From a virus, in the UHGV virus genome UHGV-0119398: a stretch of 27,935 bases of DNA. One strand, 5' to 3'. Each line of letters begins with the position of its first letter. Position 1 is the stretch's first letter. Shown here piece after piece: positions 50 to 8,627 of this stretch. The translations under genes and the position numbers were made by a program. The notes beneath the pieces were generated by a model. It was not told the origin of the DNA and searched no databases. It saw only the letters and a program-made list of their open reading frames with translations.

Positions 50-1099
50 TTATGCAACCTCTGCCGCCATATTGTCGCCAACATACAGCGATAACGGATT
101 AAGGGTTACAGCTTGTTCAAGGTGGTCAGGAGCAAAGTGTGCATACTTCATTGTTTCTCGAATATTGGCATGCCCGAGAATTTTCTGCAGTACCAGTATA
201 TTCCCGCCGTTCATCATAAAATGCGCACCAAAAGTATGACGCAAAACGTGCGTCTTCTGCCCTTCCGTCAATTCAATATTCGTTAGTTTGAGCATCTTCT
301 TAAACTCCTGATAGCAGGGTTTAAACATTCTGCCTTGACGTACGGACAACTCGTCGTACAGCCATTTAGGAATAGGAACTGTGCGATTCTTCTTACCTTT
401 GGTTTTGGTGAACGTCAGTTTATATGGAGAAAGTTGAGGGCGGGTCAATCTCTCCGCTTCCCCCCATCGAGCGCCGGTTGCAAGGCACACCTTAACAATC
501 ATGGTGAGGTCTTCTTTGCCGTATTGCTCGCAGGCTCGAAACAGCTCCGGGAACTGAGACAAAGTTAGCCAGGACATTTCTTTCTCAGCCTCTTTGAATA
601 CTCGGATCCCATCAAGTGGATTGGGTAGGCTCCACTCCCCTAACCGGCGGAGCTCATTAAACACTGCTTCTAGGTATTGTTGTTCGCGATTGACGGTTAT
701 AGGTTTGGCGATCCATTTCGAGGGGTCTTTATGATAACCGTTGTCTATTTCACCACGTAATCGACGGTCACGATAATGAGCCCAGTCTTTCGCGGTAAGG
801 CGAGATGCAATCGGGTCACCAAGCCCATTACATACGATTTGAAGCTTTGCTAACCTCGACTTACTGGCGACTAACGCTTGACCGTGCAAATTGTGCCAAA
901 GCTGAATAATCTCGCTTAAGCGTCGGCGGTCTTCTTTCTTGCCGAGCCACGGCTTATCTTCACTCTCGCTTTTGGTAAATGCTTCAAATGCCTCGGCCTC
1001 ACCTTTGGTATTGAATTGCCGACGTATACGCCGCCCTTCTCGACCATTTGGATAGAGTTCACACAACCATTTTCCACTTTTTTGTTTACTTACAGTCAT
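50..1099 (-). CDS. int: Tyrosine integrase (P2 Int-like)
   Basis: 349-aa ORF; strong resemblance to P2 Int as I recall it, including LATGARWGEA and the C-terminal HVLRHTFGAHFMMNGGNILVLQKILGHANIRETMKYAHF recombinase motif block. Confidence 0.93.
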   Translation of the reverse strand: MTVSKQKSGKWLCELYPNGREGRRIRRQFNTKGEAEAFEAFTKSESEDKPWLGKKEDRRRLSEIIQLWHNLHGQALVASKSRLAKLQIVCNGLGDPIASRLTAKDWAHYRDRRLRGEIDNGYHKDPSKWIAKPITVNREQQYLEAVFNELRRLGEWSLPNPLDGIRVFKEAEKEMSWLTLSQFPELFRACEQYGKEDLTMIVKVCLATGARWGEAERLTRPQLSPYKLTFTKTKGKKNRTVPIPKWLYDELSVRQGRMFKPCYQEFKKMLKLTNIELTEGQKTHVLRHTFGAHFMMNGGNILVLQKILGHANIRETMKYAHFAPDHLEQAVTLNPLSLYVGDNMAAEVA

Positions 1100-1123: not shown

Positions 1124-1462
1124 TTAATTACAAAGGGCTGTAGCGGCATCAATCACCGGTGAAATTGAAATTTTAACGCCGTCATACTCAGGGTCATCCT
1201 TCCATACGTCATCTAAGTTAGACCCCTCCAGCTTTCCTGATTTAACAGCATCTACCGCCATGCCATTCAGAGGATATCTATCATCAGTTTTGATGTCATA
1301 CACAAAAGCATAAGCACGGTTAACACATGATACTTTTGCCTTTTCAAAGGTTAGAGGCCACTTGTCACCATATGCAGCGCCGTCTATCTCTTTAAACTTC
1401 TCAGCGGCTATGGCTGAGGAAGAAAGTGCAATGCAGACTATCGCAAATATAAACTTTTTCAT
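1124..1462 (-). CDS. Small secreted protein of unknown function (candidate lysogenic-conversion moron)
   Basis: 112 aa; N-terminal Sec-type signal peptide MKKFIFAIVCIALSSSAIA/AEK; AAGGAG Shine-Dalgarno 7 nt upstream that overlaps the repressor stop codon; 24 nt upstream of int start on the same strand; AT-rich. Confidence 0.65.
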   Translation of the reverse strand: MKKFIFAIVCIALSSSAIAAEKFKEIDGAAYGDKWPLTFEKAKVSCVNRAYAFVYDIKTDDRYPLNGMAVDAVKSGKLEGSNLDDVWKDDPEYDGVKISISPVIDAATALCN

Positions 1463-1471
1463 TACTGCTCC

Positions 1472-2317
1472 TTAAACATGCTTTTCCAAAGTAAAAATAA
1501 CCGCACCTGATGGTGTGATATCTGAAATATTACATTCAAACTCAGCAGACTTATTTGATAACCTGACCTTTCCGCCTGGCAACCTGATTACGTCAAAAAC
1601 ATCGAGTGCGCCATCAATACCAATAAGCCAGCGACCATTTCCTATCTTCGAGTTAGAACTATCAACAAGCCAAGATGTGCTCACACCATCAATAAACACT
1701 AAATCATCAGTATTTGATGGAACCATAGATATATCAGGAGTCCAGCGTCCGATATCTTTGAGTTCGCCCGCCTCGAGGCGGCACTTTCTAATCGTTAAAG
1801 CATTTGCCGGTTCACCATCATTACTGTTACGCATCTGGCCTTTTCCGGTTGATAACCATTCTAACGATACGCCAGTATCAAGGGCGCAAGTGACAACCAC
1901 GTCACCGGGGAAAAAATCGCGTCTAACCCAAGTGCTTATAGTGCCGGAAGATATACCTAATAAATCTCCAAGCTCTTTTTGCAGAGTAAAACCATACGCA
2001 TCGAGAATCCGACGCAGAACCGCCCTCCCTCCATTTGCCATGATTTCATCATAGAGTTGCTTACCTTTAAGCTTAGTTTTCACCACTTCAGATCTTGCAT
2101 TTGCAAGCTCACCATTAATTAGCCATCGCAGGTCAGCTCCAGTATCAAGAGCACACTCAACGAAAACGTTGCTAGGGATTACGTTTCTAGCAAGCCAGCT
2201 ACTCACGTTGTTTGCATGTATGCCAAGCCTTTCGGCTAGTTCCTTTTGCTGCTTAAAGCCGTATGCAGAAAGGACACGTTCCAATGCGGCAGACGCATTA
2301 ACATCATTTTTAGACAT
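1472..2317 (-). CDS. Immunity repressor candidate with two tandem CI-type HTH domains and a C-terminal oligomerisation/S24-like domain
   Basis: Start set at ATG 2315-2317 (MSKNDV...), not the ORF-track start at 2506. Two internal ~60-aa repeats (LERVLSAYGFKQQKELAERLGI...CALDTGADLRWL and LRRILDAYGFTLQKELGDLLGI...CALDTGVSLEWL) resemble the 186-CI-type HTH domain; sits where the repressor sits in P2/186, divergent from the early operon. Confidence 0.8.
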   Translation of the reverse strand: MSKNDVNASAALERVLSAYGFKQQKELAERLGIHANNVSSWLARNVIPSNVFVECALDTGADLRWLINGELANARSEVVKTKLKGKQLYDEIMANGGRAVLRRILDAYGFTLQKELGDLLGISSGTISTWVRRDFFPGDVVVTCALDTGVSLEWLSTGKGQMRNSNDGEPANALTIRKCRLEAGELKDIGRWTPDISMVPSNTDDLVFIDGVSTSWLVDSSNSKIGNGRWLIGIDGALDVFDVIRLPGGKVRLSNKSAEFECNISDITPSGAVIFTLEKHV

Positions 2318-2338
2318 ATGACACCAACAAGAATTTTG

Positions 2339-2430: not shown

Positions 2431-2802
2431 ATGTCAGATGCAAAATCAATCTCGACGCACGACTCGCAAAACTCACAAAATCAAACTGTGCTGCTAGATC
2501 CAACACAGTTTGATGCCATCGTTACCGCCATGCTGCCAGCTCTACAGACAATGATTCGCTCCGCTATGTCAGACACGATGACTGTGAAAGACTTCGCCGC
2601 TACTCGCGGTGTTAGCGAGCGTCTGGTCTGGCAATGGCTCGATGAGGGAGTCCTTCTCAAAGCTCCGACCAAAGACTTTTCCAACAAAGAGGAAGCCGGT
2701 AAACGAAGCCGCACCCTCGTAAACGTAAAAGCATGGCGCGACAAACTGACTCAACAAGCGATCGATTGTCGCTACATCGACCAGCGCACCGCTCTTAACT
2801 GA
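2431..2802 (+). CDS. Apl/Cox-like small HTH regulator/excisionase candidate (N-terminally extended)
   Basis: First gene of the rightward early operon, directly before cII; HTH-like segment TVKDFAATRGVSERLVWQWLDEG; AGGAG SD 9 nt before ATG 2431. True start could be an internal Met (2551 or 2578). Confidence 0.55.
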   Translation: MSDAKSISTHDSQNSQNQTVLLDPTQFDAIVTAMLPALQTMIRSAMSDTMTVKDFAATRGVSERLVWQWLDEGVLLKAPTKDFSNKEEAGKRSRTLVNVKAWRDKLTQQAIDCRYIDQRTALN

Positions 2803-2834
2803 ATTTGATTATGCAAGTTAGAGGGAACTTAACC

Positions 2835-3344
2835 ATGTTTGATTTTCAGATTTCCAAACATCCCCACTATGACGATGCGTGTCGTGCTTTCGCTCAACGT
2901 CACAACATGGCGAAGCTGGCCGAGCGTGCGGGTATGAACGTTCAAACGTTACGTAACAAGCTCAACCCGGAACAGCCTCACCAGTTCACGCCGCCTGAGT
3001 TATGGCTGCTGACAGACCTGACCGAAGACTCAACTTTAGTTGATGGTTTTCTGGCGCAGATTCACTGTCTGCCATGTGTACCGGTCAACGAACTGGCGAA
3101 AGACAAACTGCAGTCTTACGTCATGCGTGCTATGCGTGAGCTGGGAGAGCTGGCGAGCGGCGCGGTCTCTGATGAGCGACTGACCTCTGCCCGTAAGCAC
3201 ACCATGATTGAAAGCGTTAACTCTGGTATTCGCATGTTGTCTTTGTCGGCACTGGCGCTGCATGCGCGTTTGCAGACCAATCCAGCAATGACGAGTGTTG
3301 TCGATACCATGAGCGGTATTGGCGCGTCATTCGGTCTGATTTGA
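2835..3344 (+). CDS. cII: CII-like lysogeny establishment activator (186 CII family)
   Basis: Start moved to ATG 2835 (MFDFQISKHPHYDDACRAFAQRHNMAKLAERAGMNVQTLRNKL...), giving 169 aa; near-identical to 186 CII as I recall it; GAGGG SD upstream. Confidence 0.85.
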   Translation: MFDFQISKHPHYDDACRAFAQRHNMAKLAERAGMNVQTLRNKLNPEQPHQFTPPELWLLTDLTEDSTLVDGFLAQIHCLPCVPVNELAKDKLQSYVMRAMRELGELASGAVSDERLTSARKHTMIESVNSGIRMLSLSALALHARLQTNPAMTSVVDTMSGIGASFGLI

Positions 3345-4371: not shown

Positions 4372-6594
4372 TTGGCTGTTCAATTCGCTTATCCGTGGAA
4401 CGTCCCACGGTCGGCAATCTCCAGCCCATACCTTACTTATGAGCAACAGCATCGCCGCGACCGTATGTTCGCGGCTTTGCTGCATGCAAAAAAGGTGCTT
4501 TCTCTCCAGCCCGACTGCGTGCGGTTAGATGTTTATCGCACTGCTGCGGTGCTGGAACAAAATCAGGGTAGTCAACGAGCCAATGCATTTTTAATCAGCT
4601 TCTGCAAAAAGGCATTGCCGCGTCTTGAACTGGTCGCAAAAAAATACGAATGCGCTGGTATCAACAGCAAGGTATCAACCGCTGTTTTTGGAAGTCATTT
4701 TGATACTCAGCAAATGCAATATCTGTCGTCACGCATGGTTAATATGGTCGCCCGATATAACCGTCTCCCGGACATGTCGCGCGCTGATGTTGACCTGTTG
4801 GCCGCTGATATTGCTAATTTCATTCGTGGTGAACTTGCCAACATTAATGACCACGGATTCGGCGAGCTTAAAACGCTGTACACCTGGTATATTCGTGCTG
4901 GCTTTATTTCCCTCCAATTCAACGTTATCCCACCACATTGGGAGCGGGTTGAAAAAAAATATGTCGGTGCGGATGAAATCGCACCGGCTATCGCCAAAAT
5001 GTTTAACGATGGGTGGTGGCGCGGTCTTTTGCGCCGTGTAGCAGCTACGTGGCGCGAACACCTGCAAATTGCAGTCGGCAACGTCAGTAAGAAAAAAAAC
5101 ACTTACGCGAGTAAAAACTGCGTGACTGACTGGCGTGAACAAAAGCGCCGCACTCGTGAATTTCTCAAAGGTCTGGATCTCGAAGACGAAGACGGCAACC
5201 GTATCAGCCTAATTGAAAAATATGATGGCTCAGTTGCTAACCCTGCGATTCGCCGCTGTGAGCTCATGACCCGCATTCGTGGGTTTGAAAACATCTGTAA
5301 TGAGCTCGGTTATGTCGGTGAGTTTTACACTCTAACCGCGCCGTCAAAATATCACGCCACGACTAAAGCCGGTTACCGTAACAGCAAATGGAGCGGTGCC
5401 AGCCCGGCTGACACGCAAAACTATCTAACCGGTATCTGGGCGCGTATCCGTGCCAAACTACATCGGGAAAATGTCCGTATTTTCGGTATTCGTGTCGCCG
5501 AGCCCCATCACGACGGCACTCCACACTGGCACATGCTGATGTTCATGCTGCCGGAAGATGTTGAATATGTTCGCTCCATCGTCCGTAAATACGCATGGAA
5601 AGAAGACCGCCACGAACTGAAAAGCGATAAATCCCAAAAAGCACGTTTCCACGCGGAGTCCATTGACCCGGAGAAAGGCAGCGCAACCGGCTATGTTGCT
5701 AAATACATTTCAAAAAATATCGACGGTTATGCTCTCGATGGTGAAACCGATGATGAAAGCGGTGAGCTGCTGAAAGAGACAGCCCCCGCCGTTTCAGCAT
5801 GGGCTGCGCGCTGGCACATCCGTCAGTTTCAGTTTATTGGTGGTGCGCCGGTGACGGTTTACCGTGAGTTGCGTCGCCTCGCTGATACCGAAACCGCGCA
5901 CGGTCTGAGCGTTGAGTTTGCCGCCGTCCATGATGCCGCCGACGCTGGTGACTGGGCTGGTTATGTTAATGCTCAGGGTGGGCCGTTTGTCCGTCGCGAT
6001 GATTTACAGGTGCGCACACTGTATGAACCGCGTACCGAGCTTAATCAGTACGGTGAGGAAACGGTATGTATTAAGGGGGTCTACGATTCCTCCATAGGTG
6101 CAGGAAGCCCGATTTTAACCCGGCTCACTCAGTGGAAGATTGTTCCGAAGCGTGCTGTTGATTTGGCCGTTGACCTTCAGGACGGCAAAGCCGTCCCTCG
6201 GAGTTCTGTCAATAACTGTACGGGAAGCGAAAGCGATCCACCGATACTGGATTTAACAAAACCACTGAGTCGGCGTGAAAGACGTGAATTGACCAACCGA
6301 CTCAGGAAGCAAAAGCCAGCAGCACGGCGAAAATTCATCCACGGAACGGATGAGCAAAACGCAGCTATAGCTAAAACTATCGATGAGATACATCTGACAA
6401 CCGGCATTAATATCAGCCGGGGCGAAGCCCTGCACCTGATGGCCGGTGGTAAAAGTTGTTTTGATGGTAAATGGCTACGCGGAACGGCCAAAGGAGAAAT
6501 ATTTTCCGCAGCACCATCGCATGAGGCTAAAGCTCGGAAAATCCTTAATCGTGTTGCGGCGATGGCTGAAGCATCAAAACCAATACATGAGTAA
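4372..6594 (+). CDS. A: Replication initiation protein gpA (HUH rolling-circle endonuclease)
   Basis: 740 aa; HUH motif VAEPHHDGTPHWHMLMF and catalytic tyrosine motif GYVAKYISKNIDGY as in P2 gpA; apparent TTG start at 4372 with G-rich SD, coupled to the upstream stop. Confidence 0.9.
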   Translation: MAVQFAYPWNVPRSAISSPYLTYEQQHRRDRMFAALLHAKKVLSLQPDCVRLDVYRTAAVLEQNQGSQRANAFLISFCKKALPRLELVAKKYECAGINSKVSTAVFGSHFDTQQMQYLSSRMVNMVARYNRLPDMSRADVDLLAADIANFIRGELANINDHGFGELKTLYTWYIRAGFISLQFNVIPPHWERVEKKYVGADEIAPAIAKMFNDGWWRGLLRRVAATWREHLQIAVGNVSKKKNTYASKNCVTDWREQKRRTREFLKGLDLEDEDGNRISLIEKYDGSVANPAIRRCELMTRIRGFENICNELGYVGEFYTLTAPSKYHATTKAGYRNSKWSGASPADTQNYLTGIWARIRAKLHRENVRIFGIRVAEPHHDGTPHWHMLMFMLPEDVEYVRSIVRKYAWKEDRHELKSDKSQKARFHAESIDPEKGSATGYVAKYISKNIDGYALDGETDDESGELLKETAPAVSAWAARWHIRQFQFIGGAPVTVYRELRRLADTETAHGLSVEFAAVHDAADAGDWAGYVNAQGGPFVRRDDLQVRTLYEPRTELNQYGEETVCIKGVYDSSIGAGSPILTRLTQWKIVPKRAVDLAVDLQDGKAVPRSSVNNCTGSESDPPILDLTKPLSRRERRELTNRLRKQKPAARRKFIHGTDEQNAAIAKTIDEIHLTTGINISRGEALHLMAGGKSCFDGKWLRGTAKGEIFSAAPSHEAKARKILNRVAAMAEASKPIHE

Positions 6595-6668
6595 TTCATA
6601 TCCATATCATGCACATACAGCAATCGCTCTATTCGTTTTTTTTCTTCCCATCTTTTGCCAATACGTGC

Positions 6669-6688
6669 TACTGTATAAATATACAGTA
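6669..6688 (+). promoter_or_regulatory. LexA (SOS) box TACTGTATAAATATACAGTA overlapping a promoter (-35 TTGCCA at 6655-6660)
   Basis: 19 of 20 match to the E. coli LexA consensus TACTGTATATATATACAGTA; sits about 20 nt upstream of the ORF at 6708, the architecture of the 186 tum promoter. Confidence 0.75.
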
Positions 6689-6707
6689 ACCCTGTGGGAG
6701 GGATTTC

Positions 6708-6890
6708 ATGGTTGGCGAACATTTCAGCCGAACGCAGCAAAAGTGGGCTTGTGTGCAATTTATTGCCGAGGTATCTCTGATTGCAAACTGCAAGCCATCA
6801 GACTTAAAGCTCGCGCTCACTCTCATTGCAGACCTAGCAAACAGCGAAAATAACGAAACCGAAGATGATAATTTTTATAAGGCTGATTAG
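6708..6890 (+). CDS. SOS-controlled small protein, possibly the N-terminal portion of a Tum-like antirepressor
   Basis: 60 aa; GGGAGGG SD; directly downstream of the LexA box; ends in TAG, in frame with the DinI-like ORF that follows one codon later. Confidence 0.55.
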   Translation: MVGEHFSRTQQKWACVQFIAEVSLIANCKPSDLKLALTLIADLANSENNETEDDNFYKAD

Positions 6891-6893
6891 ATT

Positions 6894-7127
6894 ATGAGAA
6901 TCAATATCACGTTGGATAAAGAGCAAAAAATTAGTCAGGCAACGTTGGATGCGCTTGAGGCTGAGCTGTACCGCAATCTGCAACCTATTTACCCAAAGAC
7001 CGCTATCCGCATTCGCAAGGGCTCCGCAAATGGCGTTGAGCTAAGCGGTTTGAAACTGGACGAAGATAAAAAACGAGTAATGGAAATCATGCAGCAGGTA
7101 TGGGAGGACGATAGCTGGTTGCATTAA
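6894..7127 (+). CDS. DinI-family protein (Tum C-terminal domain-like)
   Basis: 77 aa; MRINITLDKEQKISQATLDALEAEL...KKRVMEIMQQVWEDDSW aligns with E. coli DinI as I recall it. Confidence 0.8.
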   Translation: MRINITLDKEQKISQATLDALEAELYRNLQPIYPKTAIRIRKGSANGVELSGLKLDEDKKRVMEIMQQVWEDDSWLH

Positions 7128-7223
7128 CAAACGCCGCCGGTGCTGAAACTCGCTTTCAGTGCTGGCGGGGTTGAACAACGAGCCCCGCGAGGCGTTAGCC
7201 TGCCCCTTAGAGACTGCCCCCAA

Positions 7224-7249
7224 CCGGCACGATTAAAGCCGGTTTTTTT
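7224..7249 (+). terminator. Candidate rho-independent terminator ending the SOS operon
   Basis: CCGGC-loop-GCCGG followed by a T7 run; weak 5-bp stem. A larger hairpin without a U-tract lies at 7134-7168. Confidence 0.4.
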
Positions 7250-7409
7250 ATGCCATTTTTCCGCGATTTCTCCGCTTTTTAGCCGTGCATGCAACAGGTG
7301 CATGGTTTTGCATGCGTCGTGGTTGCCAGTTCTGGCCGTGCGCCGTCAGTGCTGGCGCGGATCAAGAGTGGTCATGCAACTGCATTAAAACCGACCCATA
7401 AAGCGGGCA

Positions 7410-7428
7410 GGCGTGGCGGGGAAAGCAT
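7410..7428 (+). other. cos cohesive-end sequence (19 nt) GGCGTGGCGGGGAAAGCAT
   Basis: Matches my recollection of the P2/186 cohesive end (P2: GGCGAGGCGGGGAAAGCAC); lies between the early/SOS region and the distal end of portal gene Q, the expected place and orientation. Confidence 0.6.
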
Positions 7429-7570
7429 TGCGCGCCAGCGGTGGTGCGTAATATTAAAAATTATCGTCTGAGCGCGTCGTGATGGCGCTGTCGTGATTGT
7501 TGTCGGTTCGTTGGTGGTCTGGTGTGGACGTGCTCGCGTGGCGCGTCTGAGGCGTGATGGTGGCGGGGTA

Positions 7571-7595
7571 TGAAAAAGCCGCCATGCTGGCGGCT
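7571..7595 (-). terminator. Rho-independent terminator of the Q-P late operon
   Basis: On the minus strand, AGCCGCC-AGCAT-GGCGGCT followed by TTTTT, 10 nt downstream of the Q stop. Confidence 0.55.
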
Positions 7596-7604
7596 TGAGG
7601 GGGA

Positions 7605-8627
7605 TTATTCCGGGTTGTCGAGGGTGTACTCTTTGAACCTGATGACCTCCATGCCGAGCCAGTCGTTTACCTCCCTGAACCTGTCCTGCAGGGGTGACAG
7701 CTCGTTACGTACAAAGACCTTTGCCACTTTCTCAACGTCACCGAGTGAGCCGATATTCTCGGGCTTGCCGCCCATGAGCTGGAACGGAACGCGGTGCGCG
7801 TCCATCAGGTCGGCGGCACTGGCTTTCTTGATGTTGAAAAAGTCATCCTTTGTGGCGACCTCGCTCAGTGGCACGATTTTGATGCCGTCAGGTTTTCCGC
7901 CGGGAGCGTAGAAAAACAGGTTCTTAAAGTTGCCGAGCCCTTTTGAGTTGCGCATCGCCTCGCGCAGCGATTCGACGTCGGTCGCGCTCTGCGCCGGGTC
8001 GGTCACATACATGATGTAACCCGCGTGCGCGCCGTTCTGGTAATACTTGCGGCGGAACAGCGTCGCGGATTCATTCAGCCAGGCGGAATTAAGCGCGCTG
8101 AGATATTCGGGCAGGCCATAAATCTCCTGATTAATGTCGGGCTCCAGCAGGTGAAACACGGTGTCAGGTGCGAACTCATGCGGTAGAGTGAAGTTTTCCA
8201 CAAACCAGAAAATCGAATCGTCGACCCCGCGCCGGGTGTATTTGGCCGGTGAGGCCAGCAGCTTGATTAACTGCCCGGTGACGCTGTGGCGCTGCTCAAG
8301 AAAGGCGTTGCCGAATACCAGATAGTCGAGCGCAAAGCGGCTGAAATCCTGACGGGACAGCAACGGGTGCGGAATGTAGGTGCTCGCGAGCACGTTGCGC
8401 TTAACGTAAATCGGTGAGCTGTGATGTACAGCAGAGCGCAGGCTCTTTGCCAGCCCGGAGAAGCTGACCGGCGGCTCGTACCATTTGCCGTTACTGATGC
8501 ACTCGACGTAATCCAGAATGTCACGCTTATCGAGTACCGGCACCGGCTCGCCGAAGGTGAACGCCTCCATTTTTTGCGGGGCGCTGGCGGTCGTGGCGAC
8601 TGTTTTGCGTGGCTTGCGCTTGCTCAT
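7605..8627 (-). CDS. Q: Portal protein (gpQ)
   Basis: 340 aa; EAFTFGEPVPVLDKRDILDYVEC...WYEPPVSF...GLAKSLRSAVHHSSP block as in P2 Q; start overlaps the upstream gene's stop (ATGA). Confidence 0.92.
   Translation of the reverse strand: MSKRKPRKTVATTASAPQKMEAFTFGEPVPVLDKRDILDYVECISNGKWYEPPVSFSGLAKSLRSAVHHSSPIYVKRNVLASTYIPHPLLSRQDFSRFALDYLVFGNAFLEQRHSVTGQLIKLLASPAKYTRRGVDDSIFWFVENFTLPHEFAPDTVFHLLEPDINQEIYGLPEYLSALNSAWLNESATLFRRKYYQNGAHAGYIMYVTDPAQSATDVESLREAMRNSKGLGNFKNLFFYAPGGKPDGIKIVPLSEVATKDDFFNIKKASAADLMDAHRVPFQLMGGKPENIGSLGDVEKVAKVFVRNELSPLQDRFREVNDWLGMEVIRFKEYTLDNPE

Follow-up and report, generated by a model that had tools for sequence, protein, structure and literature searches.

The closest described relatives of the locus analysed here are SOS-controlled induction genes of temperate phages. 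In coliphage 186, the Tum protein inhibits binding of the CI repressor to DNA (PMC3121763, PMC7708051) and has been described as resembling a fusion of an antirepressor with DinI (Lemire et al. 2011, PMC3121763). The 186 record likewise annotates Tum as inhibiting CI binding to DNA and marks, along with the p95 promoter, a LexA site and tum itself, an internal GTG as the start of a truncated Tum, which ‘modulates SOS induction’, so that 186 too would make the DinI part separately. A two-gene version is present in the Salmonella phage PSP3 (Eganvirus PsP3), whose record (AY135486) describes tumA as ‘similar to 5' end 186 tum; UV induction of prophage’ and tumB as ‘similar to dinI and 3' end of 186 tum’; the upstream gene has antirepressor activity according to a personal communication relayed in a passage of PMC3121763. 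The tum gene of Fels-2 has also been reported as split (PMC3121763), and a delta-tum mutant of DuoHS, a prophage of E. coli HS, is non-inducible (PMC12055606). A more distant parallel is provided by the dinI-gfoA/gftA operons of the Salmonella prophages Gifsy-1 and Gifsy-2, which are repressed by LexA and, as predicted for the locus studied here, pair a homologue of DinI with a small antirepressor able to bind the repressor of the phage (PMC3121763, PMC5322425). These operons, however, start with dinI, belong to lambdoid phages, and encode antirepressors and repressors from families unrelated to the ones considered here.

The locus described here, from UHGV virus genome UHGV-0119398, is another copy of the tumA/tumB arrangement already described in the PSP3 annotation and in the literature (PMC3121763), and what we add is purely comparative, namely that the antirepressor module is autonomous, with the DinI module as an optional and exchangeable partner. 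When phage records were searched at the DNA level, the segment was recovered at 94–97% identity in PSP3, SEN1, SW9, SI22, Midge, RCIP0057, and vB_EcoM-613R3. The likeness to PSP3 includes an identical LexA box sequence, an identical junction between the two genes (TAGATTATG), the same position between gene A and cos, and near-identical products, with TumA 98% identical (the sole difference being I55N) and TumB 98.7% identical. Judged by its sequence, the element is thus of the PSP3 tumA-tumB type, with a predicted TumA of ~60 aa behind a LexA box, a TAG-ATT-ATG junction followed by dinI, and a PSP3-type CI.

The whole stretch of DNA analysed (27,935 nt, hereafter the window) makes up the greater part of a 186/PSP3-like (Eganvirus) prophage, and the features discussed below are collected in Table 1. 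The SOS module is placed between gene A and cos, exactly as p95-tum-orf97 is in 186, and the position of cos indicates that the window spans the joined cohesive ends, i.e., that it is in prophage or circular order. The predicted CI repressor carries two tandem CI-type HTH domains followed by a CI C-terminal domain (Pfam Phage_CI_repr, 2.8e-47, in two stretches; Phage_CI_C, 6.9e-19). It is of the same type as the 286-aa CI of PSP3, to which it is 73% identical, and differs from the CI of 186, which has 192 aa and one HTH and is 32% identical. The PSP3 protein has the same two-HTH build, and the two proteins diverge most in their first HTH. A DUF2511 gene separates int from cI on the lysogenic strand, as does gp28 in PSP3; it is annotated in Midge as a putative periplasmic protein and is possibly a lysogenic-conversion gene. 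No cargo separates tumB from cos (7128–7604), and the window has no homologue of orf97, which occupies this place in 186; PSP3 differs from the window in carrying gp37 and gp38 here, and Midge has three other small genes. The portal gene and the 589-aa terminase gene flank a 248-aa ORF that has a terminase large-subunit N-terminal domain. Because it is also annotated in 186, PSP3, EtG, and Midge, it is a normal feature of the group, which rules out an insertion.

Table 1. Positions of the genes, signals, and predicted elements of the window.
Feature	Coordinates	Strand	Details
Integrase	50-1099	-	
DUF2511 gene	1124-1462	-	
cI repressor	1472-2320	-	282 aa
Cox/Apl-like gene	2431-2802	+	
CII	2805-3344	+	
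Replication gene A	4372-6594	+	
SOS module (tumA/tumB)	6669-7249	+	
p95-like SOS promoter, predicted	6645-6674	+	-35 TTCCCA 6645-6650; -10 TACTGT 6669-6674; spacer 18 nt; by alignment to 186 p95
LexA operator (SOS box), predicted	6669-6688	.	overlaps the -10 element
Shine-Dalgarno GGGAGGG	6696-6702	+	strong; 5 nt before the tumA ATG; read from the sequence
tumA	6708-6890	+	60 aa; ATG 6708; TAG 6888-6890
tumB	6894-7127	+	77 aa; ATG 6894; TAA 7125-7127; 3 nt after the tumA stop
GC-rich 13-bp hairpin	7136-7166	+	directly 3' of tumB
Intrinsic terminator, putative	7222-7249	+	AACCGGC-loop-GCCGGTT, then T run; from fold and sequence
cos	~7410	.	mapped by aligning the left ends of 186, PSP3, EtG
Portal	7605-8627	-	
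Terminase gene, 248 aa	8624-9370	-	
Terminase gene, 589 aa	9370-11139	-	

A first-pass annotation of this DNA had placed an SOS box, a 60-aa ORF ending in TAG, an ATT codon, and a 77-aa ORF in the same frame at this locus, and all of these coordinates hold. The starts of tumA and tumB are 186 nt (62 codons) apart, and the two ORFs are therefore in one frame; a single codon, ATT (6891–6893), separates the tumA TAG from the tumB ATG, and reading through the TAG into tumB would give 139 aa. The Shine-Dalgarno of tumA is kept in position in PSP3 and aligns with the GGAGG that precedes the 186 tum start. For tumB, the only ribosome-binding signal is a weak AAGG located 11 nt upstream. Given this weak signal and a start so close behind the preceding stop, translation of TumB is probably coupled to that of tumA.

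The predicted LexA operator (TACTGTATAAATATACAGTA) agrees with the consensus TACTG(TA)5CAGTA at 19 of 20 positions and represents the single occurrence of CTGT-N8-ACAG in the 27.9-kb window, for a chance expectation of 0.23. All 32 related loci that were examined have a CTG-N10-CAG box 17–23 nt 5' of their tumA ATG (19 nt in the window), which shows that the box is not a chance match. The operator lines up with the LexA site annotated in 186 and with the -10 element of its p95, as part of a base-for-base alignment of the two upstream regions in which -35, -10, LexA site, and start codon are all in register; the -35 element is TTCACA in 186 p95 vs TTCCCA here. A generic sigma-70 consensus scan called no promoter upstream of tumA, the putative hexamers being poor matches to consensus, and the predicted p95-like elements were hence assigned solely by homology to 186 p95. 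The LexA-repressed p95-type promoter that characterizes 186 tum is thus represented in the window by a predicted site. Overall, the first-pass annotation was right in its general proposal, a Tum-like module under SOS (LexA) control whose second half is DinI-like.

At the other end of the module, a probable operon terminator was recognized in a stem followed by a T run (Table 1), which a terminator pattern scan had missed because the loop is 9 nt long and the scan was limited to 8. The RNA fold of 7120–7260 has a predicted energy of -51.4 kcal/mol (z -2.8), and a search against Rfam returned no RNA family anywhere in the window. The GC-rich hairpin directly downstream of tumB is contained in a ~70-bp segment (7129–7198) conserved in PSP3 and in other P2-like prophages of E. 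coli. Copies of this segment with 88–93% identity are also present at unannotated sites in many E. coli chromosomes, and in the one case inspected (locus L042), a similar segment is located ~350 bp 3' of a P2-like replication gene A and adjoins reverse-transcriptase genes. This segment may mark a conserved edge of the variable cargo region in P2-like prophages.

The first-pass annotation had further likened the two ORFs, taken together, to 186 Tum, a comparison which gave different outcomes for the two products. The 77-aa product, TumB, aligns with residues 71–145 of 186 Tum at 47% identity (E 5e-28), and its ATG aligns with the internal GTG start annotated in 186 tum. TumB also matches the Pfam family DinI (PF06183; E 7e-24, 84.3 bits vs a gathering threshold of 24.2, profile positions 2–63 of 63), E. 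coli DinI (PDB 1GHH; E 2.6e-9, residues 1–75), and phrog_189, ‘RecA filament binding protein DinI’. By analogy with these relatives, TumB would bind RecA filaments and modulate the SOS response. For the 60-aa product, on the other hand, BLASTP yielded no alignment to 186 Tum, a tblastn search of phages with TumA reached neither 186 nor Fels-2, and the match appeared only as a weak similarity between profiles. Specifically, hhalign aligned a TumA profile (117 sequences) with a profile of the 186-type N-terminal part (120 sequences) at 89% probability (E 2e-6) over 36 columns, matching TumA residues 15–50 (VQFIAEVSLIANCKPSDLKLALTLIADLA) to 186 Tum residues 13–48 (VEMIARLTAEGTCQERDREIALNLIAEIA). 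This points to TumA as a distant homologue of the N-terminal part of 186 Tum, and such a divergence is consistent with the different CI repressors of the two phages, i.e., the 282-aa protein with two HTH domains vs the 192-aa one.

The 186-type N-terminal module is itself found in two forms. In 28 phage records it forms a fusion with DinI, and it also occurs as a stand-alone protein of 63–67 aa, sometimes with no dinI after it, annotated as ‘Tum protein’ in Salmonella, Klebsiella, and Kluyvera prophages. Like tumA, these stand-alone versions are separate small genes located just past gene A; unlike TumA, they are ~80% identical to the 186 Tum N-terminus, and their kinship with TumA is recognizable at the profile level alone. 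The window and 186 thus have in common a homologous promoter and LexA operator, a matching start position, and a DinI-like C-terminal part, but 186 encodes the two modules in one 146-aa ORF, joined by a linker of ~20 residues, where the window has two cistrons. Hence, the element would work like 186 Tum, although as a split variant that lacks the single ORF of ~146 aa.

TumA matches phrog_1993, a PHROG without assigned function, and a Pfam search returned no family. We identified 208 relatives of TumA at E <= 10 in a large protein database, each a representative of a 90%-identity cluster. Nearly all of the 120 relatives listed are 60–61 aa long, and their hosts include Escherichia, Salmonella, Klebsiella, Citrobacter, Enterobacter, Cronobacter, Kosakonia, Pluralibacter, Buttiauxella, and others. 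In an exhaustive search with HMMER, 1.8 billion representatives yielded no true TumA homologue longer than 86 aa, and the 86–93-aa matches seen in both searches correspond to gene calls over-extended upstream. The homologues all finish with a conserved C-terminal FY(K/E)A(E/D) motif, after which the stop codon is TAG, TAA, or TGA depending on the lineage, at the same position down to 36% identity, and none of the 141 TumA-family matches listed has a DinI extension past this stop. The tumA gene is also under strong purifying selection, with dN/dS values of 0.06–0.12 against its orthologues, synonymous sites being saturated in these comparisons.

Residue 55 of TumA (6870–6872) is Asn in the window (DDNFYKAD) and hydrophobic (I, V, L, F, or M) in all 24 other homologues of the alignment. 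The variant is not confined to the window, since Asn55 is also found in phage vB_EcoM-613R3 and in Escherichia sp. E1V33. An AlphaFold2 (AF2) model of TumA is a two-helix hairpin (helices at residues 3–25 and 30–53; pLDDT 75). A Foldseek search of the PDB with this model returned non-specific helical hairpins alone, all with E >1, and a sequence search of solved structures gave one designed helical-repeat protein with no significant stretch. Two tumA loci with 84–90% identity carry unexpected labels, ‘Bacillota bacterium MAG’ (L013, a 1-kb contig) and ‘Chryseobacterium sp. 18061’ (L016), which most likely reflect enterobacterial contamination or mis-binning rather than real hosts.

We then compared the surroundings of tumA across 25 species-level genome loci, along with several metagenomic ones. 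The tumA ORF stops at the same position in every locus compared, and a dinI homologue is encoded downstream in 8 of the 25 species-level loci. The two genes are in frame with a 3-nt gap in four closely related PSP3-group loci and in one Atlantibacter MAG (L020), and are out of frame in Phytobacter (L028, 2-nt gap) and in Winslowiella (L032, 17-nt gap); the eighth of these loci belongs to the PSP3 group (L009) and combines a divergent dinI allele with the in-frame junction. As the gap measures 3, 2, or 17 nt depending on the lineage, there is no conservation of a shared frame. No dinI was found in the remaining 17 loci or in the more distant L005–L007, within the ~0.5–1.5 kb of downstream sequence, and a hairpin or unrelated genes come next to tumA instead. 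The complete tumA-tumB pair was detected in 37 complete genomes, and both genes are annotated as intact in the two E. coli RefSeq records inspected. E. coli HS was absent from the 60 matches listed for the tumA-tumB region in complete genomes.

In at least 23 complete E. coli genomes, the same tumA (99%) extends until ~40 nt into tumB (~6934) and is then followed by another dinI allele. The alternative allele found in L009 is ~47% identical to TumB at the protein level. Position ~6934 looks like a recombination breakpoint within tumB, shuffling the antirepressor and DinI modules.

This comparison bears directly on the meaning of the amber codon, for which the first-pass annotation had offered three explanations: two proteins, a nonsense mutation, or read-through. 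The first is supported by the constant stop position, by purifying selection, and by the occurrence of tumA without dinI; in the related prophages, the position of the TAG is a stop everywhere, and the two-gene arrangement is itself present among them. Together, these results identify the TAG as the native stop of TumA, a 60-aa protein that is autonomous and under selection. At the level of sequence, the predicted antirepressor module is thus autonomous, and the predicted DinI module is optional and exchangeable, as it is missing in most lineages, apparently swapped by recombination, and fused in 186.

A low level of amber read-through could nevertheless yield a minor 139-aa TumA-TumB fusion which, like full-length 186 Tum, would aid induction. 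The in-frame arrangement across a 3-nt gap is what such a product would call for, the PSP3 group retains the in-frame junction also where the dinI allele is a different one, and an amber codon in a TAG-A context is relatively well suppressed. However, the frame differs in the independent Phytobacter and Winslowiella lineages, the in-frame Atlantibacter locus ends tumA with TAA, a tight stop, and most tumA genes lack a downstream dinI that read-through could reach. The loci with the TAGATTATG junction moreover constitute one closely related lineage, and the breakpoint lies inside tumB, from which it follows that the junction would be inherited along with tumA. We know of no read-through-promoting structure for the context of the tumA TAG. 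Because frame, kind of stop, and presence of a downstream ORF are all variable, conserved read-through is unsupported, and we consider this explanation of the junction very unlikely. We also give little credence to a more restricted version, in which slight read-through in the PSP3 sub-lineage, enhanced in supE-type hosts, would produce a 139-aa fusion that tunes the induction threshold. If read-through did take place, the junction would represent a living intermediate, from which a single point mutation would lead to the 186-type gene fusion.

Another reading is that TAG does end a functional 60-aa protein, but one that is not an antirepressor and has some other SOS-induced function, with induction ensured by TumB or by another gene. 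The function of PSP3 TumA is documented by a database note and a personal communication alone, and the protein has neither a Pfam family nor an assigned PHROG function, along with its weak similarity to 186 Tum, all of which leave room for such a role. Several observations oppose it: tumA starts directly behind the same LexA-controlled promoter as 186 tum, the profile homology of TumA is to the non-DinI part of 186 Tum, and in most relatives the LexA box and tumA form a complete unit without dinI, as would be expected for an essential induction function. Homologues of DinI are not known to inactivate repressors of the CI type on their own. We regard a function other than that of an antirepressor as very improbable.

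Finally, inactivation of a fused, 186-like tum by a nonsense mutation, which would leave the prophage poorly SOS-inducible, has next to no likelihood in our view: while the ORFs are in frame one codon apart and their summed length is near the 146 aa of 186 Tum, TumA homologues stop at the identical place with any of the three stop codons, no listed member of the family runs on into a DinI domain, tumA evolves under the strong constraint described above, the same junction is found in the free-living phages PSP3, SEN1, SW9, SI22, Midge, and RCIP0057, and tumA is frequently found without a dinI downstream. A pseudogene created by such a mutation is ruled out by the stop present in every orthologue, by dN/dS, and by intact PGAP annotation in the records inspected.

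Returning to the two-gene reading, we consider it very probable that the locus is a tumA/tumB SOS operon of a PSP3/186-like temperate phage, with TumA as the antirepressor. In a lysogen, host LexA bound to the box overlapping the p95-type -10 element would keep the operon off, by analogy with 186. Upon DNA damage, active RecA would promote self-cleavage of LexA, allowing the synthesis of a short bicistronic mRNA whose end is probably set by the putative terminator. TumA, as a 60-residue helical hairpin, would then bind CI and block operator occupancy, resulting in lytic growth. The choice of CI as the target of TumA follows from the biochemistry of 186, and a requirement of TumA for SOS induction through inactivation of CI is suggested by the PSP3 GenBank note and the relayed personal communication. 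Ribosomes coupled to tumA would probably translate tumB, and TumB, being DinI-like, would act on RecA filaments and shape the SOS signal. The TAG simply ends tumA, whereas 186 carries both modules joined in one ORF.

The RefSeq E. coli records that were inspected, like most of the listed phage records, label this 60-aa gene ‘hypothetical protein’, and we propose the name TumA for its product. Based on its sequence relationships, the protein is in all likelihood the SOS antirepressor that makes widespread P2/186-like prophages inducible, and the autonomy of this module would be useful for predicting which P2-like prophages are SOS-inducible.
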